The notes beneath the pieces are model-generated. The model saw only the letters and a list, made by a program, of their open reading frames with translations, did not search any database and had not been told where the DNA came from. From IMG/VR virus record IMGVR_UViG_3300028800_001035, positions 1 to 64,000 of that record: a stretch of DNA of 64,000 bases. One strand, written 5' to 3'. This document shows, in pieces, positions 1-62,719 of the stretch; position 1 is the first letter of the stretch, and each line of letters begins with the position of its first letter. This DNA is from a virus. Both the position numbers and the translations under genes were made by a program.

Positions 1-129
1 TAACGAAGATCGTCGACGAGGTCGGCGTTAGATCGGGGCCGTCAATCGGCTCCCACGGGAGGGGTTCCCCGAGGAAAAGCTCAGGGGGTCGTCCGGGACG
101 TTCGTGTCCGGGAGATGCGGGGCGAGGGC

Positions 130-490
130 GATTTGATCCAACCATTTTCAAGAGCTCCTTGGGTCGCGTAAGGATATATAATCAGGTCTAATGATTTGAG
201 AGAAGAGTAGATATTATTCTCTATCAAATCATTAGAAGAGAAGATGTATCCTCGCGCGCTACGGAAAACCCCCTGTTCTCTTTTCGTTTACGGTTTTATA
301 TTCGATTTAGTAACAAATAAGAAATATTTTAGCAACAATCGACGGAAATATAATTTCCGTAATTATAAAAAGGTTAATCGAAATACAAGAAATATAATTT
401 CCGTATTATTTATAGGGATTATTCCGCGCTCTCCGCCGAATTACAAACTCGCGTCGGACTACGGCTGGCGCGAAAGAATGTTTCTCGATT
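130..490. promoter_or_regulatory. AT-rich control region (late promoter/operator or origin)
   Basis: Only strongly AT-rich island in a GC-rich window. Inverted repeat TCTAATGATTTGA/TCAAATCATTAGA (187-199/224-236), palindrome ACGGAAAT-ATA-ATTTCCGT (342-360), direct repeat GAAATATAATTTCCGTA (345, 389). Confidence 0.6.
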
Positions 491-525
491 AGTTTCTCGC
501 CCGGGCTTCTCGAGAGGGCTTCGGG

Positions 526-1053
526 TTGGTTGACTATCGCTGGTACGCCGCGCAGGCGCTCGCAGGGCTTGAATCGACCGCAATTCACCACCTATCCCGC
601 GAAGGGATTACCGCCTGGTCTCCCCAGCCGGAGCCAAACCGGCCCGGCCGATTGTTTCCCGGCTATGTTTTCGTCGAGCTCGAGACCCCGGACGATGCCG
701 GGGTCGTCAACCGAACGCGCGGCGTTCACAAGCTCCTCCCGGTTCACGCGAGCACCCCCCTGCCCCTTCCGCATCGCTTCGTCGAGAACCTCCGCGCACT
801 GATCGAGCAGGGGAGCTTTACCGATCGCGCCGTCGCCGAAACGGTCTACAAATTCGTCGAGCACGACGAGATCGTCATCGACGGCGGGCCGTGGGACGGC
901 CACACCGGAGAATTTCTCCGCTACCACAAGAACTGCTCAATCGTTCTTTTGGCTTGCTTCGGTTCGAAAAGGGAACTACCAATACCGCGCGACGTACGGC
1001 TCCTGCCTTCCGGGCGGGGGACGCGGAGCGTAGGCGACCTCGTCGCCGCGTAA
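526..1053 (+). CDS. NusG/RfaH-family transcription antiterminator
   Basis: N-terminal WYA, NGN motif LFPGYVFVE, TRGVHKLL, KOW-like GGPWDGHTGEF; first gene of the late operon. Confidence 0.85.
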   Translation: MVDYRWYAAQALAGLESTAIHHLSREGITAWSPQPEPNRPGRLFPGYVFVELETPDDAGVVNRTRGVHKLLPVHASTPLPLPHRFVENLRALIEQGSFTDRAVAETVYKFVEHDEIVIDGGPWDGHTGEFLRYHKNCSIVLLACFGSKRELPIPRDVRLLPSGRGTRSVGDLVAA

Positions 1054-1163
1054 GGGCAATCAAACATTGAAAGGACGGTCCCGAGCCTCGGCCTCGAGCG
1101 CGTAAGCGGATGCAAATCCGAGAGCGCAGTCCATGAGGGACGCGGCGCGACCGCGACCCCGTT

Positions 1164-1796
1164 ATGCCGATAGCCGGGCAAAAATTGTGCGGGGCCAAAA
1201 CCCGAAAGGGGCGGCCTTGCGAGGACATCGCGATGGCCAACGGGCGCTGCAAGCGACACGGAGGCAAATCGACTGGTGCCAAGACGCCGCAGGTCGCTGA
1301 GATAAACCCCGCCTACAAGTACGGGATTTACGGCAAATATTACAACGACGAGGAGAAGACCCTCATCGACGGTAACGCCTTCAAGGCGGGACAAGTCGAG
1401 GCGGAACTAATCGCCGTCCGCGTTCGCCTCAAGCGCACGCTCGAGGCCCGCGCCGCCTGGGAAGCCTCCCTCGTCAAGACCGAGACCAGCCCCAAGCCGG
1501 ACGGTCAATCGGAACTCGTCCTCGTCGGGATCGAGGAGGGCGAGAAGCCCTTCGGCAAAGACGCGGACGTCATGCCCTTCGAGGCACGGACGTTCAAGCT
1601 CCCCGACTTCGACGCGATTATCGAGCGTTGCCTCCAACGGATTGAGTCCCTCGAGAAGACCCGCAAGGAGCTCCTCAAGGACGACGACGGCGATAACCCG
1701 GAGCCCGGCCGCGACCGCGTGACCTTCTCCGGCGGCCTCAACGGCGGCGACGACGAAGAGCTCCCGTCGCCCTTCGCCCCGAAGACGGAACCGTGA
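1164..1796 (+). CDS. Terminase small subunit (HGGxSTG domain)
   Basis: CGAKTRKGRPC...GRCKRHGGKSTG motif; directly upstream of and overlapping TerL. Confidence 0.8.
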   Translation: MPIAGQKLCGAKTRKGRPCEDIAMANGRCKRHGGKSTGAKTPQVAEINPAYKYGIYGKYYNDEEKTLIDGNAFKAGQVEAELIAVRVRLKRTLEARAAWEASLVKTETSPKPDGQSELVLVGIEEGEKPFGKDADVMPFEARTFKLPDFDAIIERCLQRIESLEKTRKELLKDDDGDNPEPGRDRVTFSGGLNGGDDEELPSPFAPKTEP

Positions 1797-3614: not shown

Positions 3615-5122
3615 GCACCGTTACCGTCAACGGCTCCCGGCTCGGGACCTCGCTTCAGTCGATGCTCGAGGCGGACGAGATCGTCCCCGGCGCGGAGCCG
3701 AGCTACGAGCTCTGCAAGATCATCTATTCCTTCCATCCGCTCGGCGCGAAGATGGTCGACTCGCCGATCAAGGCGGCCCAGTCGCAGTCCCGGGAGATCA
3801 CGGTCGGGAACGCCCCCGACGACGTCCCGGAAGCCTTCGTCAAGGAATGGCTCGCGATCGGCGCGGACGACCACATCCGGGCGCTCGGTTCGCTCGCGCG
3901 GATCTACGGTATCGCCTCCCTCGCCGTCTTGACCGTCGGGAAAGACCCCTCGACCCCGTTCGACCCGGCGAAGTCCGCGACCGAGAAGCTCGCCTTCAAC
4001 ACCTACGACCCGCTCAACACGGCGGGCTCCTTGGTCCTCGACCAGAACCCGAACTCGCCGGACTTTCAGAAGCACGCGAGTATCGCGGTCGCGGGGAAGC
4101 GGTACGCCCGGAACCGGAGCGTGACGCTCCTCAACGAGCGCCCCCTGTATATCGAATATACGTCCTCGGCCTTCGGCTTCGTCGGTCGGTCCGTCTATCA
4201 GCGCCCGCTCTACCTCCTCAAGTCGTTCGTCCAGACGATGATAACGGACGATATGGTCTCGAAGAAGGCCGGGCTGATTATCGCCTTCATCAAGGGCGCG
4301 GGCTCCGTCGTCGACAATATGATGATGAAGTTCACCGGGATGAAGCGGTCCCTCCTCAAGCAGGGGGTCGTCGACAACGTTCTCTCGATGGGCCCGGACG
4401 ACAAGGTCGAGTCGCTCAACCTTCAAAACCTCGACGGGGCGTTCGGGAACTCCCGCTCGAACATCATCAAGAACATCGCGACGTCGATCGACGCGCCCGC
4501 CGCCCTCCTCGAGAACGAGTCCCTGACCGAGGGCTTCGGCGAGGGGACCGAGGACGCGAAGATGATCGCCTCCTACGTCGACGGCTTCCGCAAGTGGCTC
4601 GCCCCCGCTTACGCCTTCTTCGACCCGATCGTCATGCGCCGGGCCTGGAACCCGGACTTCTTCAAGATCATGGCGAAGCGGTTCCCCGAGGAGTACGGCG
4701 GGCGCGACTACGAGGAGGTCTTCCTCGAGTGGCGCGATGCCTTCGCCGCGAACTGGCCGTCGCTCATCAAGGAGCCCGACTCCGAGCTCGTCAAGGTCGA
4801 GGACGTCAAGTTCAAGGCCCTGCTCGCAACCGCCGAGATACTCGCGCCGCAGCTCGACCCGGAGAACAAGGGCACCCTGATCGAGTGGGTCGCGGACAAC
4901 CTCAACGAGAACAAGCTCCTCTTCGCCCACCCGCTCGAGCTCGACATCGACCTCCTCCGCGCCTGGAAGCCCGAGGTCGCCGAGGGCGAGGACGGCGTCA
5001 AGGGGATCGGCGTCAACGAGAAGCTCGACGCCGCGCCGGGCGGGCACAACGCGATCAAATACTACGAGGACGCCGTCAAGCGCCTCCCGCTCCGCTTGAT
5101 CGACCGGAAGACCGGGACTTGA
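3611..5122 (+). CDS. Portal protein (DUF1073-like)
   Basis: 503 aa, position after TerL, ARIYG motif, FGFVGRSV and C-terminal NWPSL typical of this portal family. Confidence 0.85.
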   Translation: MSTVTVNGSRLGTSLQSMLEADEIVPGAEPSYELCKIIYSFHPLGAKMVDSPIKAAQSQSREITVGNAPDDVPEAFVKEWLAIGADDHIRALGSLARIYGIASLAVLTVGKDPSTPFDPAKSATEKLAFNTYDPLNTAGSLVLDQNPNSPDFQKHASIAVAGKRYARNRSVTLLNERPLYIEYTSSAFGFVGRSVYQRPLYLLKSFVQTMITDDMVSKKAGLIIAFIKGAGSVVDNMMMKFTGMKRSLLKQGVVDNVLSMGPDDKVESLNLQNLDGAFGNSRSNIIKNIATSIDAPAALLENESLTEGFGEGTEDAKMIASYVDGFRKWLAPAYAFFDPIVMRRAWNPDFFKIMAKRFPEEYGGRDYEEVFLEWRDAFAANWPSLIKEPDSELVKVEDVKFKALLATAEILAPQLDPENKGTLIEWVADNLNENKLLFAHPLELDIDLLRAWKPEVAEGEDGVKGIGVNEKLDAAPGGHNAIKYYEDAVKRLPLRLIDRKTGT

Positions 5123-6933: not shown

Positions 6934-7098
6934 ATGAGCCCCCTGCTCCTCCTCCTGATCGTCCTCGTCCTCATCGGCGTCTTCTCCGCCCCGACTTGGG
7001 GGTACGCGCAGAATTGGGGCTACGGCCCGAGCGGCGGGATCGGGCTCATCGTCTTGATCCTCGTCATCCTCGTCCTCGTCGGAAGGATTCGCCTGTGA
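6934..7098 (+). CDS. DUF3309-like small membrane protein (54 aa)
   Basis: MSPLLLLLIVLVLIGVFSAPTWGYAQNWGYGPSGGIGLIVLILVILVLVGRIRL has the PTW...WGYGPSGG signature; absent from the ORF track. Confidence 0.7.
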   Translation: MSPLLLLLIVLVLIGVFSAPTWGYAQNWGYGPSGGIGLIVLILVILVLVGRIRL

Positions 7099-7427
7099 CC
7101 GACAATACCCGAGCCGCCGCCTTCGCGACGCCCGTCTTCCTCGTCCCGCCCGTCGGCGCGGCGGTCAAGAACGTCGCGACCGCGACGACGACCCTCGTCA
7201 AAACCGGCCCCGGGACTTTGCTCGGCGTCTCGATCAACACCGGCGGCGCGGGCTCCGACTTCAAGGTCTACGACGGGCTCGACGCGACCGGGACGCTCCT
7301 CGGAACGTTCTCGAGCGCGGCGCAGGGGGTGATAAACCTCCCCGGCGGCGGAATCAATTTCCTCGTCGGCCTTTGCGTCGTCACCGAGAACGGAACGCCA
7401 GCGAACATTACAATCAGCTACGTCTAG
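7095..7427 (+). CDS. Small beta-rich structural protein, paralog of 15404..15784
   Basis: GTG start (MTDNTRAAAF); shares G.L.G...NT.G......YDG....GT.LGTFS..AQ with 15404. Confidence 0.65.
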   Translation: MTDNTRAAAFATPVFLVPPVGAAVKNVATATTTLVKTGPGTLLGVSINTGGAGSDFKVYDGLDATGTLLGTFSSAAQGVINLPGGGINFLVGLCVVTENGTPANITISYV

Positions 7428-11322: not shown

Positions 11323-12342
11323 ATGCTGAACGCTTCGTCCTACATCACCGTCAATCCCTCCTTCATGGAGCCCGAGATCATCCTGCCGTACTCGCAGGCC
11401 TCGGGCGCGTTCGACCTTATCGCCGACGGCGAGCCGCGAGTCCGGCTCTCCGAGGGCGACCTCTGGGTCTACATGAAGCGCCTCGACCTCCGCACGCGCA
11501 TGGCGGCCGGGCAGGCCTCCGGCAATCAGCTTCCCGGCGTCTCGATCGCCGCGTCGCAGATCAGCACGCCGACCTACCTTCAGCGCGTCCGGGCGACCTA
11601 CGACCATCACGACACCGCCGCCGCTGCTCGCTGGGGCTTCGGGCTTCCGGAGGCCTATCGCCTCGGGATGTTCCAGGGCCACTTCCAGCTCGCGCGCTCG
11701 GCCTTGCTCTACGGCTTCAACCCGGCGAACGGCGAAGGTCTCATTCACGCGAATGGTGCCACCGCCCTCAACCTGCCGGCCGACCAGTTCGGCAACACGA
11801 CCGTCCTGACCTACGACAACGGTCAGATGGCGTTCTTCTTGCTTCAGCAGATCGGCCTGATCAAGACGCGGACCAACCAAATGGGGATCGGGCGCAAGTT
11901 CACGATCCTCGGCCCGCAGCGGGTTCTCGAGACCTTCGAGTACCCGGGGATCGTTCAGCTCGTCCAGTACCAGCGCGTCGGCGCGGGCACGGCGACGACC
12001 GCGAACGTCGTCAAGGAGACTTGTATGTCGAACGGCGACCAGATCATCTGGGCGTACGACGACACCTTGATCGGCCAGGGCTCGGGCGGGACCGACGCCG
12101 TCATCATCTCGATGCCGGAAGTCGAGAAGCCGGAAAGCTCCCCCCTGAATACGAACGTCTTCGCGAACCTCGGCCCGGGCAATCCGGTCTGCGCGACGAT
12201 GTACGCGGATATGGCCGCGCCGCGCGAGATCACCTCGCCGATGGCGGGCGGGGCGACCGACGTCCTGACCGAATGGCGCGTTACTGCCGGCTGGGCCGTC
12301 CGCCCGGAGGCGATCACCATCATCTCGATGCAGTACCAGTAA
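11323..12342 (+). CDS. Major capsid protein
   Basis: 339 aa, AGGAGG RBS, position, followed by a terminator. Confidence 0.8.
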   Translation: MLNASSYITVNPSFMEPEIILPYSQASGAFDLIADGEPRVRLSEGDLWVYMKRLDLRTRMAAGQASGNQLPGVSIAASQISTPTYLQRVRATYDHHDTAAAARWGFGLPEAYRLGMFQGHFQLARSALLYGFNPANGEGLIHANGATALNLPADQFGNTTVLTYDNGQMAFFLLQQIGLIKTRTNQMGIGRKFTILGPQRVLETFEYPGIVQLVQYQRVGAGTATTANVVKETCMSNGDQIIWAYDDTLIGQGSGGTDAVIISMPEVEKPESSPLNTNVFANLGPGNPVCATMYADMAAPREITSPMAGGATDVLTEWRVTAGWAVRPEAITIISMQYQ

Positions 12343-12361
12343 ACCGGAAGACGTTTCCGTC

Positions 12362-12390
12362 AAAGAGCAACCCTCGCGGGTTGCTCTTTT
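12362..12390 (+). terminator. Intrinsic terminator after MCP
   Basis: AAAGAGCAACCC-TCGC-GGGTTGCTCTTTT hairpin ending in a T-run. Confidence 0.85.
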
Positions 12391-12431
12391 GGGAAGCGCC
12401 GTGAAGGGCCTTCGCAAGAAAGGGCAACAAG

Positions 12432-12941
12432 ATGAAGACGTACATCGCGAACTGCACTATGCAGAACCAGACGGCGAACTTTCGCCTCCCGGAATTTCCG
12501 AAGCCGCACTCGATCAAGGTCCCGATGGGACGGCAGGCGGAGGTCGGCGACTTGACGCCGCCGCAGCTCGACTCCTTCGTCGATCAGATGGGGCGCTACG
12601 GTATGGTTCACGTCAAGGAGGCGGGCAAGGCGACCGTCAAGATCGTATACCTCTATTCGACCGACGGCCCCGTCCCGCAGGAGGCGTTCCTCCGCGTCCT
12701 CGAGCGGAACAGGGGGCTCTTGCGGAACGAGGGCGTTCGCCGCCGCCAGGAGGCCGCCGTCGCGGCCAACGCGGCGATGAACACCGAGGACACGCCGGTC
12801 AAGAACCTCGAGATGTCGATTGAGGAAGAGACCTCCGGCTCGTTCGCGGGTCAGGACGACCCGATCGCCGAGGGCATCAAGATCGACAACGAGGCGGTCA
12901 CGAGCGAGAACAAGACACCGCGCCGACGCGGCAAGGGCTGA
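12432..12941 (+). CDS. Hypothetical head-associated protein
   Basis: Position after MCP, AAGGGCAA leader. Confidence 0.65.
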   Translation: MKTYIANCTMQNQTANFRLPEFPKPHSIKVPMGRQAEVGDLTPPQLDSFVDQMGRYGMVHVKEAGKATVKIVYLYSTDGPVPQEAFLRVLERNRGLLRNEGVRRRQEAAVAANAAMNTEDTPVKNLEMSIEEETSGSFAGQDDPIAEGIKIDNEAVTSENKTPRRRGKG

Positions 12942-15403: not shown

Positions 15404-15784
15404 ATGCCGCAAGCCCCCCTGAACGCCTTCGTCGCGAAGAACCCCTCGAACGTCCTCGTCGCGCTCAAGGTCGACGCGAACGGCGACCTGATCGTCAGCT
15501 CCGCCGGGACGCCCGGCAACTCTTCGAAGAACTACGCCGCGAATACGGCGGGCGACCAGGCCAAGCTCGGCGCGGGCATCCTTCGCGGCTTGACCGTCAA
15601 CACTGCCGGCCTGACCTCGACCGCGACGCTCTATGACGGGACGTCGACCTCCGGCACGAAGCTCGGGACCTTCTCGACCCTCGCGCAAAACAGCTTGCAG
15701 GACCTCAACCTCGCCTTCGCGACCGGGCTCTTCGTCGTCCTCGCAGGTGGGACCCCGGCGGACGTCACGGTCTCCTGGTCCTAA
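15404..15784 (+). CDS. Small beta-rich structural protein, paralog of 7095..7427
   Basis: AGGAG RBS; visible similarity to the 7095 product. Confidence 0.65.
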   Translation: MPQAPLNAFVAKNPSNVLVALKVDANGDLIVSSAGTPGNSSKNYAANTAGDQAKLGAGILRGLTVNTAGLTSTATLYDGTSTSGTKLGTFSTLAQNSLQDLNLAFATGLFVVLAGGTPADVTVSWS

Positions 15785-15820
15785 ATCGGCGCGGCCTCCA
15801 ACCTTTAGGGGAACCCCCGA

Positions 15821-17203
15821 ATGGTCAACAACATTGTTACCGTCAACGTCTCGCAGACGATCGCGCCGACGCCGAGCACGCTCCAGAAGACCGGGGCGTT
15901 CATTTCCCAGGGGGCGACGACGCTCGGCGCGGGCAAGACCGCGCTGATCACGCAGCTCTCGGACCTAACGTCAATCCTTCAGGGCGCGTTCGCCCTCGCC
16001 TCCCTAACCTGGTCCGGCGGCGTCGTCACGGGGACGACCGCCGCGCCGCACGGCTTCGCGAACGGGCAGCAGATACAGCTGACGATCTCCGGCGCGGTCC
16101 CCTCGGGCTATAACGGGACCTACATCTGCACGATCACGGGCGCGTCGCTCTTCACGTACGCGCACGCGGGAACCCTGACGACCCCGGCCGGAACGCCGGG
16201 CGTCTACACCGAGGAAGACGTCGCCGAGCTCCTCGCGATGGGGACGACCTTCTTCGCGCAGGGCGCGGCGCAGGCCGTCTACGTCCTCGAGCTCGGTCAA
16301 GGCGACGCCGCGACCGGCGTCACCGCGCTCTCGGCGTACATAACGGCGAACCCGAACGCGTTCTATTCCTACCTCGTCCCCCGCAACTGGGCGAGCGAGA
16401 CGACCTACTGGGCCTTCGTCGCGAACTTCGAGAACCCGACCGCGAAGACCTACTTCTTCACGACGATGTCGCTCGCGAACTACACGAACTTCACGCCGCA
16501 GATGAAGTCCGTCTTCGGCCTCGTCGAGGCCCCGGTCATCCCGGTCACGGAGTTCTCGCTCGCGGCGGTCTTCTACCGGACGCTCAACTACGACCCGTCG
16601 ACGACGAACAAGGTCGCGCCGACCGCGTTCGCCTTCCTCTTCGGCGTTACGCCGTACCCTCTCCCGGGTAACAGCGCGCAACTCTCGACGCTCAAGTCCG
16701 CCTTCGTCAACTACGTCGGAACCGGAGCCGAGGGCGGGATCTCGACCGCCGTCCTCTTCTGGGGGACGACGATGGACGGGAACGACTTCACGTACTGGTA
16801 CTCGGTCGACTGGGTCCAGATCAACATCGACCTCGACATCTCGAACGCGATCATCGACGGCTCGAACAACCCGATCAACCCCCTGTACTACAATCAGAAC
16901 GGCATCGACCGGCTCCAGGGGGTAGCCGCGTCGACGATGTCGAGCGGCGTCACGTTCGGCCTCGTCCTCGGGAACGTCGTTCAGACCGCGCTCGACGGCC
17001 CGGCCTTGACCGACGCGCTCGCGCGGAAGCAGTTCGAGGGGCAGACGGTCGTCAACGCCGTCCCGTTCATCCCGTACTCGGAAGAGAACCCGGGCGACTA
17101 CAAGATCGGCAAGTACAGCGGCTTCTCGATCTCGTACACCCCGGCGCGAGGGTTCCTCTCGATCATCTTCAACGTCAACGTTTCCCAATTCGTAGCGGCT
17201 TGA
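15821..17203 (+). CDS. Tail sheath protein (DUF3383-like)
   Basis: N-terminal NIVTVNVS, C-terminal YWYSVDWVQIN...PLYYNQNGI; precedes the tube gene. Confidence 0.85.
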   Translation: MVNNIVTVNVSQTIAPTPSTLQKTGAFISQGATTLGAGKTALITQLSDLTSILQGAFALASLTWSGGVVTGTTAAPHGFANGQQIQLTISGAVPSGYNGTYICTITGASLFTYAHAGTLTTPAGTPGVYTEEDVAELLAMGTTFFAQGAAQAVYVLELGQGDAATGVTALSAYITANPNAFYSYLVPRNWASETTYWAFVANFENPTAKTYFFTTMSLANYTNFTPQMKSVFGLVEAPVIPVTEFSLAAVFYRTLNYDPSTTNKVAPTAFAFLFGVTPYPLPGNSAQLSTLKSAFVNYVGTGAEGGISTAVLFWGTTMDGNDFTYWYSVDWVQINIDLDISNAIIDGSNNPINPLYYNQNGIDRLQGVAASTMSSGVTFGLVLGNVVQTALDGPALTDALARKQFEGQTVVNAVPFIPYSEENPGDYKIGKYSGFSISYTPARGFLSIIFNVNVSQFVAA

Positions 17204-20820: not shown

Positions 20821-21305
20821 CGACGTATTTCGAGTTCGCGCCGACCAACACGGCGGCGTTTCAATTTCAACCGACGTTCGACGGCGTGGTCTACAACGTC
20901 GCCGTCCCATGGCTCCTCTTCGGCCGCCGCTACTACGTCGCCTGCTACGCGCTCGACGGGACCCTCCAGTTCCTCTTGCCGCTGATCGGCTCGCCGACGG
21001 GGTTCGAGATACAGGCGATCGAGTGGGAGCGCGGCAACGCGATCGTCACGACGGTCGAACCGCACGGCTTCAAGATCGGATCGACGACCGAGGTGACGAT
21101 CTCCGGCGTCGCCCCGGCCGCGTACGACGGCAAATTCAAGGCCCTCGCGGTCGACCCCGTCACCCTCTCCTACCCCCTGGCCGCCAACCCCGGCCAGGCG
21201 ACGGCGCTCGGAAGCGCGAACCGCGATATAAGCATGACGGCGGGGTACTTCAATTCGACCCTCGTCTATCGTGCCGCGAACAAGACCTTCGAGGTCTCGC
21301 CCTAG
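20817..21305 (+). CDS. Baseplate protein
   Basis: GTG start (MTTYFEFAP); contains the TTVEPHG beta insert. Confidence 0.65.
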   Translation: MTTYFEFAPTNTAAFQFQPTFDGVVYNVAVPWLLFGRRYYVACYALDGTLQFLLPLIGSPTGFEIQAIEWERGNAIVTTVEPHGFKIGSTTEVTISGVAPAAYDGKFKALAVDPVTLSYPLAANPGQATALGSANRDISMTAGYFNSTLVYRAANKTFEVSP

Positions 21306-35701: not shown

Positions 35702-35920
35702 CTACCTCCCGGTCTCCGGCGCGTCTAGGGCGACCCGCGCCGTCCCGTCGGGTTCGGAGAAGGCCGCGAACTCGACGACGGCTAGGACGGCTCCCGCGAC
35801 CGCCGGGAGGGCGAGGAAGGCGAGAAAGAGGAGCGCGACGAGGGTCAACCCTCCCGACCCCCTGACCTCGCGGCGGAACAGGGGGCGGGCTTCGGGCTTC
35901 GGGATATAGACGCGGCTCAT
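35702..35920 (-). CDS. Small membrane protein
   Basis: MSRVYIPKPEARP... with TM; ATGA overlap with the upstream gene. Confidence 0.55.
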   Translation of the reverse strand: MSRVYIPKPEARPLFRREVRGSGGLTLVALLFLAFLALPAVAGAVLAVVEFAAFSEPDGTARVALDAPETGR

Positions 35921-43421: not shown

Positions 43422-43928
43422 CTACGCGGCCTCGGGCGGCCCGGGGTCCGATCCTACCGGCCCGACCCGCCGAGCCGGTTCTCCGCCGCCCGCTCGAGGC
43501 CCCGTCAAGGCCCGGAGGACCCTCCCGGTCGGGAAATTGCCCTTCCCGAAGGCCCTCGCGACGAAGAAGGCGTCTCCGGCCCGGACGGCGTCCTCGAAGA
43601 CCCCCCTGATCCCGGCGGGCTCGAAGAGGAAGTGCCAGGGGGGCGCTTTGAGGAGGAGGAAGGCCCGCCCCCCGGCGGCGGTCCAATCCTCGGCGAAGGC
43701 GACTTGCTCGAGCGTCAAGGTCTCGACGTGAAGCCGCGTCGCATCCCGCTTCGGGAAGCCGTCGATCGACTTGAGCTCGATCCAGCCGGTCGCGGCGTTC
43801 CCGTTCGGGGCGCGGAGGGCGTAGGCGACGTCGGGAACGCCGAGCGCGGTCGAGGTCTCGATCCGGACGAGCTTCCCGAACGGGGAGAGGTTGTCGCGGA
43901 CGGTCGACCAGTAGGCGTCTTCCCTCAC
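43422..43928 (-). CDS. PD-(D/E)xK nuclease (VRR-NUC/Holliday junction resolvase-like)
   Basis: RIET...GVPD...WIELK...EQVAF. Confidence 0.75.
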   Translation of the reverse strand: MREDAYWSTVRDNLSPFGKLVRIETSTALGVPDVAYALRAPNGNAATGWIELKSIDGFPKRDATRLHVETLTLEQVAFAEDWTAAGGRAFLLLKAPPWHFLFEPAGIRGVFEDAVRAGDAFFVARAFGKGNFPTGRVLRALTGPRAGGGEPARRVGPVGSDPGPPEAA

Positions 43929-46961: not shown

Positions 46962-47212
46962 CTTTGCCTCCTGATCTTGCCTTCAACCTTGCGCTCCCGC
47001 GCCGCCGCCTGCTTGTTGATCTCGGCGGTCGCCTCCCCGGCGATCCCGCCGAAGATAGCGCCCGCAACGAAGAGCGCAAACATCCGCTCCTTCTCGAGCT
47101 TTAGTATAAAATCCTTCGGACCAATCTCAGACGAGGTATATCCCGGCATCTCCGCCGCAAGGTAGTCCTCGAAGGCGTTCTCGAGCGATTCCTTGGAAAC
47201 AGAATATGTCAC
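46958..47212 (-). CDS. Hypothetical protein
   Basis: GTG start overlapping the polymerase stop. Confidence 0.55.
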   Translation of the reverse strand: MTYSVSKESLENAFEDYLAAEMPGYTSSEIGPKDFILKLEKERMFALFVAGAIFGGIAGEATAEINKQAAARERKVEGKIRRQR

Positions 47213-49176
47213 AGCGCCTCTCCCCACGTCCGCCCCGTCTTCGCCTCGACGAGGACCGGGACCTTGAGCTTGATCGCGTTCGGCATCACGTCCTCGTGAA
47301 GCTCGCGCCAAGCCTCGCGGCCCCGCGCCGTCCTCGGGATCGAGGAGTTGAGTTCGTCGTAGATCGTAAGTAGGTACGGCCCCAAGGCGTCCGATGCGGT
47401 CAATCCGCGATCGACGCCGTCGACCATCGCCTTCTTGATTATATCCGCGTTCGACGATTGCATCTTCTTGTTGAGCGCCGTGTAGGTGTGATAGCGGACG
47501 ATGTTCGGCCCGTATTCCTTCTCGGCCTCGGCCCGGCGGAGCGGCGTCGCGGGATTGTCCCAGTTCTTCTTCGCGGGCTCCCAGAGCAGGAACCGCTGGC
47601 GTCGCCGGAGGATCGAGCGGACGAAGCCGTGCTTCTCCGCGTACTTCTGCGCCGCGTCGAACGTATCCTTGTTGAACGGTAGCTTCGCGTCGTAGAGGTC
47701 GATGAAGGCCTGCGCCTCTTGCTTCGAGATGCCTAGCATCTCGCCGATCTTGTTCGCGCGGGCCCCATAGGTCTTGCCGAAGTTTAGGTTCTTGACATAT
47801 TTCCGCCGCTTCTTGTCCTCCGGCGGGATGCCAGCCATCTCGGCGCACATCTTGTGGTAGTCGGTCCTCGGGTCCTCGTTGTAGGTCCGCCGGACGGATT
47901 CCGCGCTCGGCCCGACCGCGAAGTGCGCGAGGAGCCGATACTCGATCTGCGAAAAGTCCGCCGAACCCCAATCCTCGCCGTCCTCCGGAAGGAAAAGCCC
48001 CCTGATCAGGGGGGCGACGTCGCGGAGATCTTCGTCGGCGCGGTCGTCGTCGCGGCTCGGGATGTTGGCGAGGTTCGGGTTCGCGCTCGCCGTCCGCGCG
48101 ATCGTACCGCCGCCGTCGTCCTTGAGTTGCTTCCACTCGCAATGTATCCGGCCCTTGACGTTCGAGCCGATGATCGTCCCGTCCATAAAGGTCGAGAGGA
48201 GGGTTTGAACCTTCCTCCCGTTGTAGATCGCGGAGCAGAGCGGGTCGCCGAGGCGGGCGGTTAGCCAACCCTTCGTAATCGAATCTTTCCCGGACTTCGG
48301 CGTCTTCGGGATTTGGTGCCCGTTCGCGCGAAGCGCGTCGGTGAAGCTCTCCGGGATTGAGAGCTCGGCCTTCGGGCTCGAGAGCCGCCGAACCTCGGCG
48401 AGGAGGCGGTCGCGGACGCGGACGAGGCCCTCGCGGGTCCGGATCGCGCCCGCGACGTCGACGCGAACGCCGCGCCGCGTCATATCGACCAAGGGGCGGA
48501 CGAGGCGGCGCTCGATCTCCCAGACCGGGAGGAGCTCCTCGGCGGCGAGCTTCTCGCGCTGGAGCTTGATGATCCGGAGCGGGCGGTCGACGTCGGCGAG
48601 CGCATAGGGCCCGGCGTGCGAGGAGTGGAGCTTCCAGACGTTCGACTTGATCTGCGAATCCGTCTTCCAGCCGCGCGCGTTGGCGGCCTTGCGGAGAAGC
48701 TCCTCGTCCTTGCCTTGCCCGAGGTAGTCGCGGGCGAGCGCGTCGAGGTTGAACTCGTAGCGCCATTCGTCGAGCAACGGCTCCGCGATTTGAACGTCGT
48801 CGAACGCCTCGACGAGCGGGAACGTCACGCCGTTCTCCGCGAGCCAGTCGAGGTCGTAGGCGAGCTTCGCGCCGACGACGGTCCCCCGGAAGGCGTTAAG
48901 CTCCTCGCGGGCCCAAGCCCAGACGATCCGCTCGTCGAGGTTGCCGCCGCCTTCGTGGCGAACGGGAAAGTACCAGCGGCGACCGTCTTCGGTCCCGACC
49001 GCGAGGCCGACGACGTAGTTGCCGGGGCGTCGGACGCCGGGGCCGAGCTCGGCGATTTGCGTATCCTTGGTCTCGACGTCGACGGCGAGATCGCCGAAGC
49101 GCGGCAAGCTCGGAAGCTCAGCGGGCGGATGCCAGGCCGGGACGTCCTCGAGCTCGACGGCGGAGAGGAGGTTCAA
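47209..49176 (-). CDS. Family A DNA polymerase (3'-5' exonuclease plus polymerase)
   Basis: VDVET exo I, YALAD exo III, NPNLANIP, ADFSQIEYR (A), RKYVKNLNFGKTYG (B), TIYDEL (C). Confidence 0.93.
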   Translation of the reverse strand: MNLLSAVELEDVPAWHPPAELPSLPRFGDLAVDVETKDTQIAELGPGVRRPGNYVVGLAVGTEDGRRWYFPVRHEGGGNLDERIVWAWAREELNAFRGTVVGAKLAYDLDWLAENGVTFPLVEAFDDVQIAEPLLDEWRYEFNLDALARDYLGQGKDEELLRKAANARGWKTDSQIKSNVWKLHSSHAGPYALADVDRPLRIIKLQREKLAAEELLPVWEIERRLVRPLVDMTRRGVRVDVAGAIRTREGLVRVRDRLLAEVRRLSSPKAELSIPESFTDALRANGHQIPKTPKSGKDSITKGWLTARLGDPLCSAIYNGRKVQTLLSTFMDGTIIGSNVKGRIHCEWKQLKDDGGGTIARTASANPNLANIPSRDDDRADEDLRDVAPLIRGLFLPEDGEDWGSADFSQIEYRLLAHFAVGPSAESVRRTYNEDPRTDYHKMCAEMAGIPPEDKKRRKYVKNLNFGKTYGARANKIGEMLGISKQEAQAFIDLYDAKLPFNKDTFDAAQKYAEKHGFVRSILRRRQRFLLWEPAKKNWDNPATPLRRAEAEKEYGPNIVRYHTYTALNKKMQSSNADIIKKAMVDGVDRGLTASDALGPYLLTIYDELNSSIPRTARGREAWRELHEDVMPNAIKLKVPVLVEAKTGRTWGEAL

Positions 49177-49922: not shown

Positions 49923-51016
49923 CTCTTCCTCGCCTCTCTCAAATCGCGGTACGGGATCAGGACCTTGTCGCGAACCGCCGAAGCGACGGCGGCCATCATA
50001 ACCGGCGGGACGGCGCGGCCCATCCGCTCCCATTTCTGCTGATAGGTCCCCGTCAACTTAAAGTCATCGGGGAAGGAGCAAAGCCGCCGGACCTCGGCGA
50101 TCGAGAACTTCCGCTTCTCGGTCGGATGGCATACCCCGGCGATAGATTCTCCGCCGTGGCTCGCGAGGATCGTCGGCGCGGGCTTCGACCGGCTCGCGCG
50201 GATCAAGGAGAAGAAGCGGTCGGACTGCTGCCCCTCCGCGCACTTGTCCCACTCCGCGCCGATCGCGTAGCGCGAGATGTCGATCCCGTCCATAACCCCG
50301 GGATGCTCCTCGGTCGCGCCGTCGGTCATCCACGGGCAGGCGTCGCCGACGTTGTAGCGATAGTCGAGCGGCTCCGGGTAGGCCGGATCGAGCCCGAGGT
50401 CCTCGCGGACGCCGACGAAGATAATCCGCATACGTTGCTGCGGGACGCCGAGCCATTGCGCGTCCAAGACGCGCGCCCCGACGCGGTAGCCGAGCGAGCG
50501 TAGGAGCTCGAGGACGTCGTTGAAGTACCCGACCGCAACCCCCCTGACCAATCCCGCGACGTTCTCGGCGACGAAGGTCTTCGGCTTGATCCCATCGACG
50601 AGCCGGGCGAACTCGAAGAAGAGGTCGTCGGTCCGCTGCTTGGAGTCGGAATATTTCCGGACGACGCCCCAACCCTCCGACCGCTTCCCGGCGGTCGAGA
50701 AGGAGGCGCAGGGGGGACTGCCGTCGAAGAGGTCGAGGCCGCCGGGCTTGACGCCGCACGCGGTCAAGACGTCGGCGGCTTGGACGGTTCGTATGTCCCG
50801 CCCGTCGACGACGGTATAGGGGCGCGCGTTCGCCTCGTAGGTCGCCCGCGCCTCCGGGATGAACTCGTTCGCGTAGCCGAGCTTGAAGCCCGCCATCCGG
50901 TAGCCGAGGCTCGAGCCCCCGCAACCGGAAAACGTACTCGCGGCGACGAAGCCGTTCGGCTCGAGCGCGTCGATCTCCGCCATCAGCGGGACGCGGTAGG
51001 GAGGCTTCTCGGTCAT
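49919..51016 (-). CDS. DNA cytosine-C5 methyltransferase-family enzyme (probable carboxymethyltransferase)
   Basis: FSGCGG (I), GSPPC (IV), ENV (VI), QQR.R (VIII), motif X GRAVPP. Confidence 0.9.
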   Translation of the reverse strand: MTEKPPYRVPLMAEIDALEPNGFVAASTFSGCGGSSLGYRMAGFKLGYANEFIPEARATYEANARPYTVVDGRDIRTVQAADVLTACGVKPGGLDLFDGSPPCASFSTAGKRSEGWGVVRKYSDSKQRTDDLFFEFARLVDGIKPKTFVAENVAGLVRGVAVGYFNDVLELLRSLGYRVGARVLDAQWLGVPQQRMRIIFVGVREDLGLDPAYPEPLDYRYNVGDACPWMTDGATEEHPGVMDGIDISRYAIGAEWDKCAEGQQSDRFFSLIRASRSKPAPTILASHGGESIAGVCHPTEKRKFSIAEVRRLCSFPDDFKLTGTYQQKWERMGRAVPPVMMAAVASAVRDKVLIPYRDLREARKR

Positions 51017-53994: not shown

Positions 53995-54402
53995 CTATAC
54001 GGACTGATCCGAACCCCGGAGGGTCCGGAGTTCGTCGCGGGTCAATTCGTTCTCGAGCTTGCCCAAGGCTTCGGACCAAGGCGATTCCGGATCGCGCGAC
54101 GTGTTCTCACGGGCTGCGCCCTCGTAGAGCCGGGCGTAGTACCACCGCGCGCTCTCGAGGGAGTGCTCCGGCATCTTCGAGCGCCGGAGATAGCGAAGAA
54201 TGTTCGAGGCGGCGGCGACCGGGCCCCAACCGAGGCGGAGCATCGCGTCCCACGGTTGCTCGCCTTCGACCCCGTAGTGCGCCTTCCTCGGCTCCCGATC
54301 CCCCTGGTTCTCCCGGACCGGCGCGAGGGCAGGGGGTTGGGCCCGTCGCTCGCTCGCGAGCTTCTCGATTCCCTCGACGGTTTCGCGATCGACGTCGGTC
54401 AC
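53995..54402 (-). CDS. DUF3310-like protein
   Basis: AHY...EQPWD...NILRYL.R.....LESARWY. Confidence 0.6.
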   Translation of the reverse strand: MTDVDRETVEGIEKLASERRAQPPALAPVRENQGDREPRKAHYGVEGEQPWDAMLRLGWGPVAAASNILRYLRRSKMPEHSLESARWYYARLYEGAARENTSRDPESPWSEALGKLENELTRDELRTLRGSDQSV

Positions 54403-55778: not shown

Positions 55779-55791
55779 CTTCTCTCCTCCC

Positions 55792-57276
55792 TTAAATCCG
55801 ATACCCGTACTGCGTGCCCGGCGCGACGAGGATCAGCTTCTCCTTGCACCGCGTCGCGCCGACGTAGAACACGCGATGCTCGCTATCCTCGTCGAGCTCC
55901 ATCGCCCGGCTCGTCCGGTAGGTCATATCGGTGACGAGGACGACGCCCTCCGCCTCCGCGCCCTTGCTCCCGTGGATCGTCTCGATCCGGACCTTCGGCT
56001 CGTCGGTCAGCTTCCCGCCGCGCCGCATGATCGCGAGGTAATATTCGCGGGTCTCGAGGGGGATCTCGGTCAAGGCGTCGTGCCATATCCGGCCGGCATC
56101 GTAGCCGAGCTCGGCGGCGGAGCGGCTCCCCTCGAACGGCTCGAACGCGATCCCGGCGGACTTGGCGAGGGCGTCGGCCTCCTCCCGGTCTATCTTCTTG
56201 CCGCCCCGGAGCGCCTCGTGGGCCTTGATCGCGCGGACGTCGGCCCAGCGGACGGACTTCTCGCCCTTGACCTCGTACGCAACCCCCTGCGCCCTTGCGG
56301 CGGCGGCGAGCGCGGGAAGTTGCGCCCTAGTCCTCGCCAACAAGAGCCAGCGCCCGTCCCCTCCGAGGCCCGCTCCGGAGAAGTCGACCTCGTCGGCGGC
56401 GGCAACCCAATCGACCGACCCTTCCCGGTTGGAGGGCCGCCAGTCGCGGGCGTACTTCTTGCCGATCCGCGCCCCGATCTCCGCCGCGAGCCGGAAGGGG
56501 GCTCGCGGTAGGCGATGCGACAGGGGGAGATTCTCGATCTCGAAGCCCTCGGCGCGGAGGCCGAGGAACTTCTCCTCGTCGGCCCCGGCCCAGTGGTGGA
56601 TCATTTGCATATCGTCCCCGGCGACGAAAAGTTCCTCCGCGTTGGCGAAGAGGCGGTTCGCGACGCGCCACTGCGCGCGGGAGAGGTCTTGCGCTTCGTC
56701 GACGATCGCGACGTCGACGTCGAGCGGGGGAAAGGAGGAGTCGGCGTAGCGCGTCAGCATATCCGTGAAGTCGAGGACGTCCTCGTCGTCCTTGTAGGCC
56801 TCGTAGGCGCGGTTGAAGCGGAGGAGCCGGAACCACTCGAGCTCGGAGCCGTGATCGCTCCAGGCGTCGGCGAGCGAGCGCCCGGTCGTCCGCGCGAAGT
56901 GGTCGAGCGTCAAGAGCGGATCGGCGGAGCGACCAGCGACCGGCGCGTCGGAGAAGGGGTTCGTCAAGGACGTCAGGAGCTCGCCGGTAATCTCGGAGAC
57001 GCGGTCGAGGTGCTCGTCGCCGAGGACGCGGCCCCGCCCGAGGCCGAGCTCGCGGAAGGCGAAGGCGTGGATCGTCTTGAAGTTCGGGAGGTCGTCCGGG
57101 GTTAGGCCGAAGGCGTCGCAGGCCCGCTTGATCGCGAGCCGGATCGCCTCCTTCGTAAAGGACGCGAAGGCGATCCGCGCGGGCGGGATGCCCGCCTCTA
57201 AGGCGAGCTCGACCTTGCGGAGGAGCTTCTCCGTCTTGCCAGCGCCGGGCCCGCCGAGGACGAGGACCTTCCTCAT
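55792..57276 (-). CDS. Second UvrD-like SF1 helicase
   Basis: GGPGAGKT, TIHAF, VDEAQD, AGDD.Q.I, TIHGSKGAE, YVGATR. Confidence 0.92.
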   Translation of the reverse strand: MRKVLVLGGPGAGKTEKLLRKVELALEAGIPPARIAFASFTKEAIRLAIKRACDAFGLTPDDLPNFKTIHAFAFRELGLGRGRVLGDEHLDRVSEITGELLTSLTNPFSDAPVAGRSADPLLTLDHFARTTGRSLADAWSDHGSELEWFRLLRFNRAYEAYKDDEDVLDFTDMLTRYADSSFPPLDVDVAIVDEAQDLSRAQWRVANRLFANAEELFVAGDDMQMIHHWAGADEEKFLGLRAEGFEIENLPLSHRLPRAPFRLAAEIGARIGKKYARDWRPSNREGSVDWVAAADEVDFSGAGLGGDGRWLLLARTRAQLPALAAAARAQGVAYEVKGEKSVRWADVRAIKAHEALRGGKKIDREEADALAKSAGIAFEPFEGSRSAAELGYDAGRIWHDALTEIPLETREYYLAIMRRGGKLTDEPKVRIETIHGSKGAEAEGVVLVTDMTYRTSRAMELDEDSEHRVFYVGATRCKEKLILVAPGTQYGYRI

Positions 57277-61215: not shown

Positions 61216-61251
61216 TGCCCCGAGCCTTCAATCGACTTCTTCGTCTCGTTG

Positions 61252-61293
61252 AAAAACCCGGGCGGCGGAGCCCTTCTATCCGCCGCCCGGTTC
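61252..61293 (-). terminator. Intrinsic terminator after the SSB-like gene
   Basis: CCGGGCGGCGGA-loop-TCCGCCGCCCGG followed by GTTTTT on the - strand. Confidence 0.8.
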
Positions 61294-61302
61294 AGGCGAC
61301 GC

Positions 61303-62217
61303 TTACATCTCGACTTCGTTCTCGGCTGCGGGTTCCTCGACCAAACCGCCGGTGTAGTCGACCTCGGCCTTGCCCTCCTCGACAAACTTCGCGAACTCCT
61401 TCGCCATAGCGAAGAGCGGGTCGGACTTCTTGATGAACGACTTGACGGAGACGTCGTCCGAGCCGTCCTCCTTCTTCGCGAGGAGCCCGATCACGTAACC
61501 CTTGAACGCGCCCTTCTTGTTGCGCTCGTTGCCGGTGGTCAGGAGCCACTTGTGGGAATAGAGCGCGGGCTTGACCGGGACCTCCGAACCGGCGACGAGG
61601 TATTCGAAGCCGTCGGCGCGGTCGATGAACGTAGTGTATTTAGAAATTTGCGTCGACTGGAACGGAACAATCGCGCGGAACTTCGATCCCGTCGCCGGGT
61701 CGATGAGGATCGAGTAGAGCTCGAAGCTCTCGACGATCTCCGTCCCGTCGAGCGGCTTGCCGTCCTTGTCCCGCTTGGTCACGCCGTTCGGGAGGCGGCC
61801 GAACTTGCCGAACTTGGCGCGGAGGTCCTTGATGAGCTTGTCGCCGGGCTGATGAAGGCCGACGAAGCCCCCGCCGATCTCGCGCGGCGTATATTCGATG
61901 AACTTGTGATCCCGCGCGCACGCGATCATAATCAACGACGAGTAGAGCTGCTTCGACGCCGTGTTCATGAAGAGCCCGGCCTTGGCGTTCGGCATATACT
62001 TGGCGTTGCCCTCCTCGCACTCCGGAGAGTTCGATTGAAGGATGCGGAGGAAGGGAACCTTCCGCTCGTCGGCGGAGATGTTCTTGAGCCCAGCCCCCCT
62101 GTCCTCCTCGTCGATCTCGACGACCGCGAGCTGGGTATTGTTTGCCGCCGTCGGGAGCTGCTTGTCGGCTTCCGGGGCCGGAGCCTCGGGTTTCTTTTCT
62201 TCGGTCTTGGCGTTCAT
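61303..62217 (-). CDS. Putative ssDNA-binding/recombination protein
   Basis: PFLRILQSNSPE motif, acidic C-terminal tail, next to the primase. Confidence 0.6.
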   Translation of the reverse strand: MNAKTEEKKPEAPAPEADKQLPTAANNTQLAVVEIDEEDRGAGLKNISADERKVPFLRILQSNSPECEEGNAKYMPNAKAGLFMNTASKQLYSSLIMIACARDHKFIEYTPREIGGGFVGLHQPGDKLIKDLRAKFGKFGRLPNGVTKRDKDGKPLDGTEIVESFELYSILIDPATGSKFRAIVPFQSTQISKYTTFIDRADGFEYLVAGSEVPVKPALYSHKWLLTTGNERNKKGAFKGYVIGLLAKKEDGSDDVSVKSFIKKSDPLFAMAKEFAKFVEEGKAEVDYTGGLVEEPAAENEVEM

Positions 62218-62278
62218 GTCGATATCCTTTTGGTCTTCGTTGAGCCGGTTCCTGGTTGCGTCGACCGGCGGCGGCGCG

Positions 62279-62719
62279 TCATACCCTTTCGGGTATCTTG
62301 ACCGCTCGCGTCGGCGAGCGGGAGAAGCAGGGGGTTTTGCGGTCTTCGACTTCGGCCTTGACCTCGGCCGCGCTGACGAGGCTCGTCGGTTTCCAGCCCT
62401 TGGTCGGACGGAGCTCGTACAAGCGCGCGGGAAGGACCGGGAGGCCGCGCCAATCTTTGCGCTGAACGACGAAGCGGCGGAGGGGCTTCCTCTCGTCGGC
62501 GATCATACCGGCGGCGATCTTGTCGCCCTCGGGATTGGCGCGGGCGGAAAGGACGCGGTCCGCGATGTTGCTGATCTCGCGCCAGACCGGCGGCATCTCG
62601 CCCTTGTAGTACTGCTCGACGCCGGGGAGGCCGATCTTCTCCCAGAACTCGGCGTGGTCGGTCATCTTCGGGTTGTTCTTGAGGACCGCGCAGGCCGTTG
62701 CGACTAGCTTGTTGCCCAT
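62279..62719 (-). CDS. Hypothetical protein
   Basis: ORF in the operon. Confidence 0.5.
   Translation of the reverse strand: MGNKLVATACAVLKNNPKMTDHAEFWEKIGLPGVEQYYKGEMPPVWREISNIADRVLSARANPEGDKIAAGMIADERKPLRRFVVQRKDWRGLPVLPARLYELRPTKGWKPTSLVSAAEVKAEVEDRKTPCFSRSPTRAVKIPERV

Follow-up and report, generated by a model that had tools for sequence, protein, structure and literature searches.

Primases begin synthesis at short template words, 5'-GGGTC/TGGTC/GTGTC-3' for T7 gp4 and 5'-CTG-3' for DnaG, and plasmid RSF1010 carries ssiA and ssiB, hairpin-forming sites of ~40 nt that occur once per plasmid. Chi sequences (e.g. GCTGGTGG of E. coli) are G-rich, asymmetric, 5-8 nt long, over-represented and orientation-dependent. 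Uptake signal sequences and DNA uptake sequences (USS/DUS) occur at ~0.7-0.9 per kb. In phages T5, phiKMV-like and tf, nick motifs lie on one strand, and Cluster A mycobacteriophages carry stoperators of 13-14 bp that are intergenic and oriented with transcription. Here, the dispersed heptamer CCCCCTG (complement CAGGGGG) was analysed in an uncultured soil phage, IMG/VR record IMGVR_UViG_3300028800_001035 (hereafter G000; 72,463 bp, 64.7% G+C). The window is the first 64 kb (64,000 nucleotides) of this record. CCCCCTG is a DNA-level signal under selection, because it exceeds codon shuffles, lies in several frames, uses rare codons and is conserved among relatives.

Gene calls on G000 were crude, being based on G+C at third codon positions and codon usage and not on curated annotation; the called genes made up 91.6% of the record. 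The window contained 26 CCCCCTG and 18 CAGGGGG sites (44 in total). These were exactly the positions listed in the original prediction, a scan of the letters of the window. Dinucleotide-preserving shuffles of the window (n = 100) gave a mean of 6.0 sites (sd 2.19, largest 15), and none of the 100 reached 44. The whole record contained 28 CCCCCTG and 22 CAGGGGG sites (50 in total), and CCCCCTG was its most over-represented heptamer. Synonymous-codon shuffles within called genes (n = 1000) yielded 11.3 sites on average (sd 2.6, maximum 21), and codon-order shuffles (n = 1000) yielded 10.3 (maximum 22). The three kinds of shuffle ruled out chance or composition as the cause. The codon-preserving comparison had been proposed with the original prediction, and its inference of DNA-level selection held.

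Nearly all sites (47 of 50) were intragenic by the called genes. They occupied all three frames and both coding senses, which ruled out a repeated peptide as the cause. Sense sites mostly read NNC-CCC-CTG, and antisense sites NNC-AGG-GGG or CAG-GGG-GNN. Pro-Leu dipeptides were encoded as CCC-CTG in 19 of 104 cases (expected 2.46), Arg-Gly dipeptides as AGG-GGG in 11 of 85 (expected 1.39) and Gln-Gly dipeptides as CAG-GGG in 19 of 45 (expected 8.4), in agreement with the earlier statement that the sites fall in different frames and use uncommon codons. Leucine codon usage of G000 was itself unusual for 65% G+C (CTC 69%, CTG 8%), and 19 of its 153 CTG codons lay in motif sites. Enrichment was limited to the exact heptamer: the 21 one-mismatch variants, pooled, reached 0.70 of expectation in G000, 0.70-0.83 in five of six genomes and 1.18 in the relative G002. 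No information beyond 7 bp was found in the motif flanks.

The sites were arranged in ordered inverted pairs (Table 1). In the window, 16 of 18 CAGGGGG sites lay within 600 bp downstream of a CCCCCTG and seven within 40 bp, the same counts as originally claimed; for the whole record the former count was 18 of 22. Uniform placement (n = 10,000) gave a mean of 5.07 and a maximum of 13, and circular shifts a maximum of 12. Pairs within 40 bp numbered seven in the whole record vs 0.36 under the null. The opposite order was nearly absent (2 of 22 with wrap-around; by linear count 1 of 16 in the plus arm and 0 of 12 in the minus arm). A permutation of pair distance and orientation had been suggested with the original prediction; 18 of 22 lies above every permuted count. 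The order was the same in both gene arms, as first noticed, with 8 of 10 CAGGGGG sites paired in the plus arm and 10 of 12 in the minus arm. The palindrome reported at 47998-48013 was likewise found; it reads CCCCCTGATCAGGGGG and is perfect over 16 nt. The plus arm held 16 CCCCCTG and 10 CAGGGGG sites, the minus arm 12 of each. The 28 plus-strand and 22 minus-strand sites alternated throughout the record, and no orientation bias relative to the genome ends was found. Partners were missing for 10 of the 26 plus-strand sites in the window.

Sites were also regularly spaced. The coefficient of variation (CV) of per-strand spacing was 0.51 for CCCCCTG and 0.48 for CAGGGGG, vs ~0.95 under the null (reached in 0 and 1 of 5000 randomisations, respectively). 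Across genomes, mean per-strand spacing was 2.3-4.1 kb, with CVs of 0.27-0.57 in most cases against the same null of ~0.95. Pair spacing ranged from 9 to ~600 bp. For 100 pairs pooled from seven genomes, its distribution showed a sharp peak at 21-39 bp (22 pairs), two pairs at 40-59 bp and a broad hump at 60-600 bp. In 30 pairs no more than 100 bp apart, complementarity past the 7-mers was absent (mean extension 0.67 nt outward, 0.3 nt inward). A hairpin or terminator was thereby ruled out; selection acts on two sites and not on a hairpin. G+C content was 0.629 inside pairs and 0.627 and 0.634 in the flanks (97 pairs), and a meltable origin region was ruled out by this equality.

Relatives were collected by PolA and primase searches of IMG/VR, and the reversed word, with 0-7 copies per strand, served as control. 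CCCCCTG was strongly over-represented in eleven further uncultured phage records (twelve with G000) of 51-66% G+C. Copies on the two strands were 23+19 in G001, 24+29 in G002, 25+29 in G003, 26+27 in G005, 56+33 in G006, 21+18 in G007, 13+13 in G414, 28+36 in G415, 25+24 in G416, 31+27 in G417 and 8+11 in G418. Pairing in the same order was significant in G001 (10 of 19, null 3.9), G003 (21 of 29, null 6.5), G005 (12 of 27, null 5.4) and G007 (14 of 18, null 3.0); in G007 the two orientations alternated nearly perfectly. Regular per-strand spacing was also found in G001 (plus strand), G003, G005 and G007, and not in G002. The assemblies of G001, G002 and G007 circularise. G001 carries a second over-represented word, CCGATGCTC, with 15 copies vs 1.0 expected.

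Individual sites turned over. When G000 sites were mapped to relatives via protein alignments, 12 of 28 were found at the same position in G003, 8 of 28 in G001, 4 of 16 in G007, 2 of 16 in G002, 2 of 9 in G006, 1 of 25 in G005 and 0 of 12 in G008. G005 nonetheless has 53 sites. As positions turn over while density persists, selection holds density, spacing and pairing and not particular positions. Site 56283 was kept in G001, G003, G002, G007 and G006; its conservation may instead be that of its Gln-Gly codon pair.

Gene sharing was determined by tblastn of all G000 proteins (E 1e-3) against the six motif-bearing records G001, G002, G003, G005, G006 and G007, some compared records being incomplete. 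The structural arm of G000 was shared solely with G001, G003 and G005. No homologues of its structural genes were detectable in G002, G006 and G007, yet these carry 53, 89 and 39 copies of the word. The signal thus follows the replication module and neither the virion genes nor a host-range module, and a packaging or virion function was ruled out by the unrelated structural modules. PolA, helicase 2, primase, the gp34-like and gp33-like proteins, SNF2, the helix-turn-helix (HTH) protein g43038 and g43422 were found in six of six motif-bearing records, as was helicase 1, weakly in G006. With MW202510.1, an uncultured podovirus of 45% G+C that carries a variant word (see below), G000 shares just PolA, gp33-like, gp34-like, primase, helicase 2 and SNF2. 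Every word-bearing record that was checked for a primase had one of the PF22548 type. The ParB-like gene had no tblastn homologue in G002, G006, G007 or MW202510.1; the two winged helix-turn-helix (wHTH) genes were each found in two of the six records and had no homologue in MW202510.1. As universal readers, the ParB-like, wHTH, NusG-like and CmoX-like proteins, HTH g43038 and helicase 1 were rejected, each being undetected in at least one motif-bearing phage.

Other phages carried variant words. Among closer relatives, the word of G006 is in effect relaxed to CCCCTG (164 copies), and G008 uses CCCCTG, mostly as TCCCCTG (15+16 copies, 11 of 16 paired, null 2.5). Among more distant phages, CCCTGAC occurred 17+16 times in G413, whose primase is 34% identical, vs 1+1 for the control. 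By hand count, 9 of the 16 minus-strand sites of G413 lay downstream of a plus-strand site at 600 bp or less (~3 expected), and the opposite order was seen for 2 of 17. MW202510.1 contained GTCCCTG 20 times vs 2.5 expected, with four ordered pairs. In other loci of the primase family, the top dispersed heptamer was AACCCTG, GCCCCTG, AGCCCTG or CCCCTGG. The variants GTCCCTG, TCCCCTG, AACCCTG, AGCCCTG, GCCCCTG and CCCTGAC all retain 3'-GTCCC-5'. By our own arithmetic, ~0.6% of random heptamers contain CCCTG in one or the other orientation. Phages with CCCTG-core words span 41 to 66% G+C and differ in structural modules and in restriction-site avoidance. A core shared across this range and across varied virion modules suggests that the reader is encoded by the phage, within the shared module, and is not one host factor. 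G000 itself strongly avoids several 6-bp palindromes, with no CCGCGG (186.5 expected), GGCGCC (138.2), GGATCC (35.3) or GAATTC (16.0) and 12 GCCGGC (149.2). The avoided set differs among the relatives, suggesting hosts that differ and are restriction-rich.

Other words found in these searches were of different kinds. GAGGTWGGC in G008, considered as a dispersed word, proved to belong to a 15-bp tandem repeat, whose arrays (10-160 and 55888-56413, 39 copies on one strand) stand at both contig ends of an incomplete record. CCCGATG in L027 and ACCCCTA in L152 were also tandem arrays. In Acinetobacter phage SH-Ab 15497 (MG674163.1), GAGCAACC formed two clustered iteron sets and was not dispersed; these lie at 20890-21054 and 43039-43236 in non-coding DNA. 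An adenylosuccinate synthetase is annotated in the record of this phage, which encodes a primase of the same family and lacks a dispersed heptamer. GCCCAGG in G009 (25+22 copies in 39 kb) was dispersed and unpaired. CTCCTGGG in G004 (40 vs 9) was strongly strand-biased, dispersed and unpaired.

The primase at 59623-61215 matched PF22548 (E 4.7e-8) and phrog_21866 (E 9.9e-76). Its layout comprises an N-terminal Prim-Pol domain, a PriCT-1-type middle, an invariant cysteine cluster (C243, C312, C321 and C326) and a C-terminal winged-helix-like domain; PriCT-1 (PF08708) was recorded on homologues and not on the G000 protein. An AlphaFold2 model from a 27-sequence alignment (mean predicted local distance difference test score 85) matched CAPP Prim-Pol with Z 20 (root-mean-square deviation 2.6-3.0 over 186-191 residues) and RepB' with Z 7-8 (Foldseek E 2.7e-5). 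Matches of the C-terminal winged-helix-like domain reached Z 6-7. By this model, the gene product has the catalytic fold of the archaeo-eukaryotic primases (AEP), and primase activity is predicted.

Published AEP start templates fit the word. The passages on start sites in PMC10345425 give 3'-G-Y-C-5' for Pri1, 3'-G-Y-Y-5' for HSV-1 UL52 and 3'-R-C-C-5' for CAPP, with efficient priming by human PrimPol on 3'-G-T-C-5', and associate AEP primases with purine-initiated primers and polypyrimidine templates. Read 3' to 5', CCCCCTG is G-T-C-C-C-C-C, which fits the 3'-G-Y-Y, 3'-G-Y-C and 3'-G-T-C preferences as given in those passages. Six pyrimidines followed by a G, read on one or the other strand, are expected in ~1 of 128 random heptamers (own arithmetic).

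The reader of CCCCCTG would be a protein of the conserved replication module, most likely the AEP Prim-Pol primase 59623-61215. This primase is the best candidate because it lies in the shared module and its family is known to select short template words. We assign a probability of roughly 40% to the reading that CCCCCTG is its initiation site on single-stranded template. From the features above we infer as follows which protein reads the word, which primer it makes and what the pairs do. On a template 3'-G-T-C-C-C-C-C-5', the G would stay uncopied, and the T and the C run would give an all-purine primer starting pppA-G-G-G. Since a seven-letter start site is rare by chance, selection would seed one per ~2.3-4.1 kb per strand, with rare codons where needed. 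Okazaki fragments of phages and bacteria are in this size range. With sites on both strands, either strand could be primed regardless of fork direction. At a CCCCCTG...CAGGGGG pair with the C-rich strand as template, two primers would, on geometric grounds, extend apart. A pair could also launch synthesis both ways from one small opened region, as ssiA/ssiB of RSF1010 do with RepB'. It is quite unlikely that each pair is a small primase-defined bidirectional origin, that ~20 dispersed starts replicate the 70-kb genome, and that the word drifted between lineages, presumably with its Prim-Pol.

Several observations weigh against the primase as reader. G002 showed weak pairing (7 of 29, null 5.2), and G006 none (12 of 33, null 12.6). 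Most loci with the same primase family had no enriched dispersed heptamer; the family by itself therefore imposes none. Known primases, to our knowledge, read 3-5 nt, and an exact 7-nt requirement would be unusual. Lagging-strand priming alone needs neither inverted pairs nor strict order nor the 21-39 bp peak, and no orientation switch that would mark a single origin was found in G000. In the G413 word, the letters specific to that lineage (AC) come 3' of CTG, where the template is not copied. Helicase 2, SNF2 and the gp33-like and gp34-like proteins co-occur with the word as well as the primase does; as judged from gene content, the link between motif and primase is phylogenetic and no tighter than that of its module neighbours. 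The CCCTG 5-mer had a median observed/expected ratio of 1.20 (rank 1 of 512) in 110 primase-bearing loci outside the clade, which are interrelated, and among loci from the PolA scan its enrichment was 1.12 with a primase in the flank (23 loci) vs 1.11 without (9 loci). The general 5-mer enrichment was given no weight.

Besides primase sites, the original prediction had offered Chi-like sites, programmed nicks, and binding sites of the ParB-like or wHTH proteins. Primase sites fared best, as the motif travels with the AEP module and the template preference fits, and the ParB-like and wHTH proteins are disfavoured by their absence from several motif-bearing records. Each of the four needs further assumptions to account for how strictly ordered and how close the pairs are.

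An unlikely alternative is a Chi-like signal, in which 5'-CAGGGGG-3' would be read from its 3' side by a helicase-nuclease, either host RecBCD/AddAB or the phage UvrD-like helicase with the PD-(D/E)XK-like protein. Recognition would halt degradation of phage DNA and promote recombination, and outward-facing pairs would stop enzymes from either side. Like Chi, the word is G-rich, 7 nt long, asymmetric, dense and present in both orientations, and the conserved module includes a UvrD-like helicase and the PD...ELK protein. The circularising genomes of G001, G002 and G007, if they have permuted ends, would need both orientations everywhere. A host Chi is opposed by the recurrence of the same core in phages of 41-66% G+C that differ in their structural modules and in which restriction sites they avoid. 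In 401 genomes of one bacterial phylum, CAGGGGG exceeded the reversed control by at most ~5.5-fold, vs 9-14-fold in the phages; a scan of genome contigs returned four phage-like contigs of metagenome-assembled genomes, uninformative about the host. By our own reasoning, the DNA lost before the first correctly oriented site is independent of pairing, so that closeness and order are not predicted. Both phage helicases retain Walker A and B motifs, and neither resembles a dead scanner subunit.

It is equally unlikely that a replication-module protein (for example SNF2, a gp33/gp34-like protein or, as initiator, the primase through its winged-helix end) binds the word on double-stranded DNA; two copies bound to each pair would then form a dispersed origin, an anchor for DNA architecture or a loading site. 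Each pair has dyad symmetry, and its order and closeness are under selection. The missing complementarity beyond the 7-mers of close pairs fits two independent sites, their G+C, equal to that of the flanks, argues against simply meltable regions, and the primase has a winged-helix-like domain. No fixed dimer explains spacings of 9 to ~600 bp, however, and the partnerless plus-strand sites of the window, the lack of flank information beyond 7 bp and a winged-helix match of just Z 6-7 speak against this explanation as well.

Programmed single-strand nicks, made at each motif by a phage nuclease as in T5-like and phiKMV-like phages, are rather improbable. The short asymmetric motif at regular intervals and the conserved nuclease-like gene would suit them, and a UvrD/PcrA-type helicase with PolA could begin strand-displacement synthesis from such nicks. 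Known nicked phages are nicked on one strand, whereas here both strands carry sites, and for the 22 of 100 pooled pairs that are 21-39 bp apart, opposite nicks would risk double-strand breaks.

It is very unlikely that the word marks, or is the target of, DNA modification by the CmoX-like C5 enzyme or by a different methyltransferase, or that it is kept unmodified. The phage encodes CmoA-, CmoX- and amidoligase-like genes. According to PMC12783734, a characterised CmoX modifies GpC, which is absent from the interior of the heptamer, and a phage CmoA/CmoX/amide-ligase pathway makes 5-carboxymethylcytosine and its amides. Among nine compared records, the CmoX-like gene was well conserved solely in G001; it was weak in G002, G007 and G008 (26-30% identity) and not found in G003, G005 and G006. 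A modification target also accounts for neither enrichment, pairing nor regular spacing. The genes concerned are a class-I methyltransferase (49173-49922, minus), a C5 cytosine methyltransferase-like gene (49919-51016, minus, SPPC at residues 100-103) and an Asn-synthase/QueC-like ATPase (51249-52055, minus), with a ParB/DUF6551 gene nearby (58006-58854). These adjacent genes in 49173-52055 look, by sequence, like the CmoA/CmoX/amide-ligase pathway, and G000 DNA is probably hypermodified at cytosines.

A transcription-level signal, either an ops-like site for the NusG-like protein or a CCCCCUG/CAGGGGG RNA stem, is the most improbable: every transcript would carry both complementary words in the same order, but both orientations occur in both gene arms, and a stem is indifferent to order, whereas order is strict and close pairs have no stem past 7 bp. 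The NusG-like gene (526-1053, plus) stands at the head of the 35-kb structural arm (PF02357, E 4.7e-10; phrog_6386 'transcription antiterminator'). Homologues were found in G001, G003, G002, G007, G008, L118 and L130 and not in G005, G006 or MW202510.1.

Table 1. Coordinates of heptamer sites and genes in G000.
Feature	Position	Strand	Start-to-start distance	Remark
Pair 4141 / 4361	4141..4367		220 bp	
Pair 6939 / 7323	6939..7329		384 bp	
Pair 12141 / 12710	12141..12716		569 bp	
Pair 15415 / 15908	15415..15914		493 bp	
Close pair 16879 / 16916	16879..16922		37 bp	
Pair 21173 / 21626	21173..21632		453 bp	
Pair 27266 / 27808	27266..27814		542 bp	
Close pair 33796 / 33833	33796..33839		37 bp	
Close pair 35858 / 35879	35858..35885		21 bp	
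Close pair 38870 / 38909	38870..38915		39 bp	In helicase 1; both sites kept in G001 and G003
Close pair 43602 / 43636	43602..43642		34 bp	Both sites kept in G003
Overlapping pair CCCCCTGATCAGGGGG	47998..48013			In PolA gene; kept in G001
Pair 50540 / 50709	50540..50715		169 bp	
Close pair 54300 / 54330	54300..54336		30 bp	Both sites kept in G003
Pair 56283 / 56521	56283..56527		238 bp	In helicase 2
Pair 62095 / 62328	62095..62334		233 bp	
Unpaired CCCCCTG	269..275	+		No CAGGGGG within 600 bp downstream
Other unpaired CCCCCTG (starts)	756, 2722, 5694, 8889, 19273, 23749, 31771, 52938, 58531	+		
Unpaired CAGGGGG	82..88 and 30567-30573	-		
Plus-strand arm	1 to ~35.6 kb	+		Structural genes
Minus-strand arm	~35.7 kb to end	-		Replication genes
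Terminase large subunit	1793-3187	+		
Portal	3611-5122	+		
Capsid (weak match)	11323-12342	+		Tail genes also in plus arm
UvrD/PcrA-like helicase 1	38396-39961	-		
Small HTH protein g43038	Minus arm	-		
Small protein g43422	43422..43928	-		PD...ELK motif seen by eye (possibly PD-(D/E)XK / VRR-NUC-like nuclease); in all compared relatives but G004
DEDD exonuclease	44317-44985	-		
PolA, family A DNA polymerase	47209..49176	-		Shared module
Sliding-clamp-like gene	52052-53035	-		
UvrD/PcrA-like helicase 2	55792..57276	-		Shared module of all motif-bearing relatives
AEP Prim-Pol primase, 530 amino acids	59623..61215	-		Proposed reader
Pam3 gp34-like protein	61303..62217	-		Shared module; function not assigned
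Pam3 gp33-like protein (DUF7307)	62932..63522	-		Shared module; function not assigned
SNF2 helicase	68588-70309	-		Beyond window

Searches with further genes and with the DNA itself gave the following results. No Pfam match was obtained for g43422, and an atlas search with the gp34-like protein matched its own family alone. Rfam and tRNA scans of the window gave no match. The best identities to cultured phages were 38.7% for PolA and 34.6% for the primase, and two stretches of the window gave no match among cultured phages by megablast or tblastn; by these sequence comparisons, no cultured phage is close to G000. Eight DNA runs labelled rhizosphere metagenome contained part of the window as contigs, and no RNA runs were listed. 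Four runs covered 38001-58000 with just short contigs at a depth of 2-7.

A stretch of ~2 kb at 44986-46957 had no confident gene call. It contains a 24-nt repeat in three copies (45497, 45855 and 46294), G+C is lowered, to 0.597 in the bin 44001-48000, and no CCCCCTG site lies between 43636 and 47998. This stretch may be a regulatory or origin region. In the structural arm, a protein of 646 amino acids (8485-10425, plus) carries an N-terminal NUDIX domain (residues 6-146, E 5.1e-15), its remainder being without family match. A gene of the replication arm (55194-55739, minus) matched phrog_4786 'cysteine dioxygenase' (E 6e-42).

Full-text literature searches listed no paper on an evenly spaced, pair-ordered phage heptamer, those for the two heptamers themselves giving just primer-type noise, and none is known to us; there is a real chance that this dispersed replication or recombination signal is something new. 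About 50 coding positions were rewritten against codon preference so that one exact heptamer stays at even spacing on both strands and in ordered inverted pairs. The signal survives even though individual sites turn over completely and the structural module as a whole is exchanged. It is a strong and unusually clean case of a genome-wide DNA code layered on protein coding. If Prim-Pol were the reader, a highly sequence-specific AEP primase would be directly testable, primase specificity would shape genome sequence, and the variant words would form a natural series for the evolution of specificity. If the pairs were bidirectional origins, the phage would replicate from many origins, in a eukaryote-like plan, and no other primase is known to read 7 nt. 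A phage Chi-like system, nickase or initiator as reader would be equally new for such phages. The heptamer could also mark this phage group in metagenomes.

The word resembles primase sites in being a short asymmetric template word, in which pyrimidines follow a 3' purine that is not copied, and in lying on both strands at intervals like those of Okazaki fragments; it also ends in CTG. It differs in requiring seven exact letters rather than 3-5, and its link to a primase is predicted. We know of no primase site for which enrichment with rare codons, regular spacing and inverted pairing have been described. As in RSF1010 ssiA/ssiB, two close sites on opposite strands are oriented for starts both ways, and the primase model matches RepB'; unlike ssiA/ssiB, the sites are bare intragenic 7-mers without a ~40-nt hairpin, in ~20 pairs per genome. 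Chi shares with it G-richness, asymmetry and over-representation. Chi is, however, host-specific, strand-skewed with replication, free of tight inverted pairs and read by host RecBCD/AddAB, whereas the phage word follows a phage replication module across very different G+C contents.

Like the stoperators and the nick motifs of T5, phiKMV-like and tf phages, which phage proteins read, the word is an asymmetric motif spread across a phage genome in dozens of copies; the sites described here are intragenic, on both strands, paired and independent of transcription direction. The USS/DUS of Pasteurellaceae and Neisseriaceae are likewise short asymmetric words in both orientations, largely intragenic and in several frames. 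According to PMC1939737, 65% of H. influenzae uptake sites lie in open reading frames, ~10% of uptake sequences form inverted repeats, and mismatched uptake sequences are also over-represented. In the phage, by contrast, pairing involves ~80% of minus-strand sites, forms with one mismatch do not exceed expectation except in G002 (1.18), and the carrier is a lytic-type phage and not a competent bacterium.

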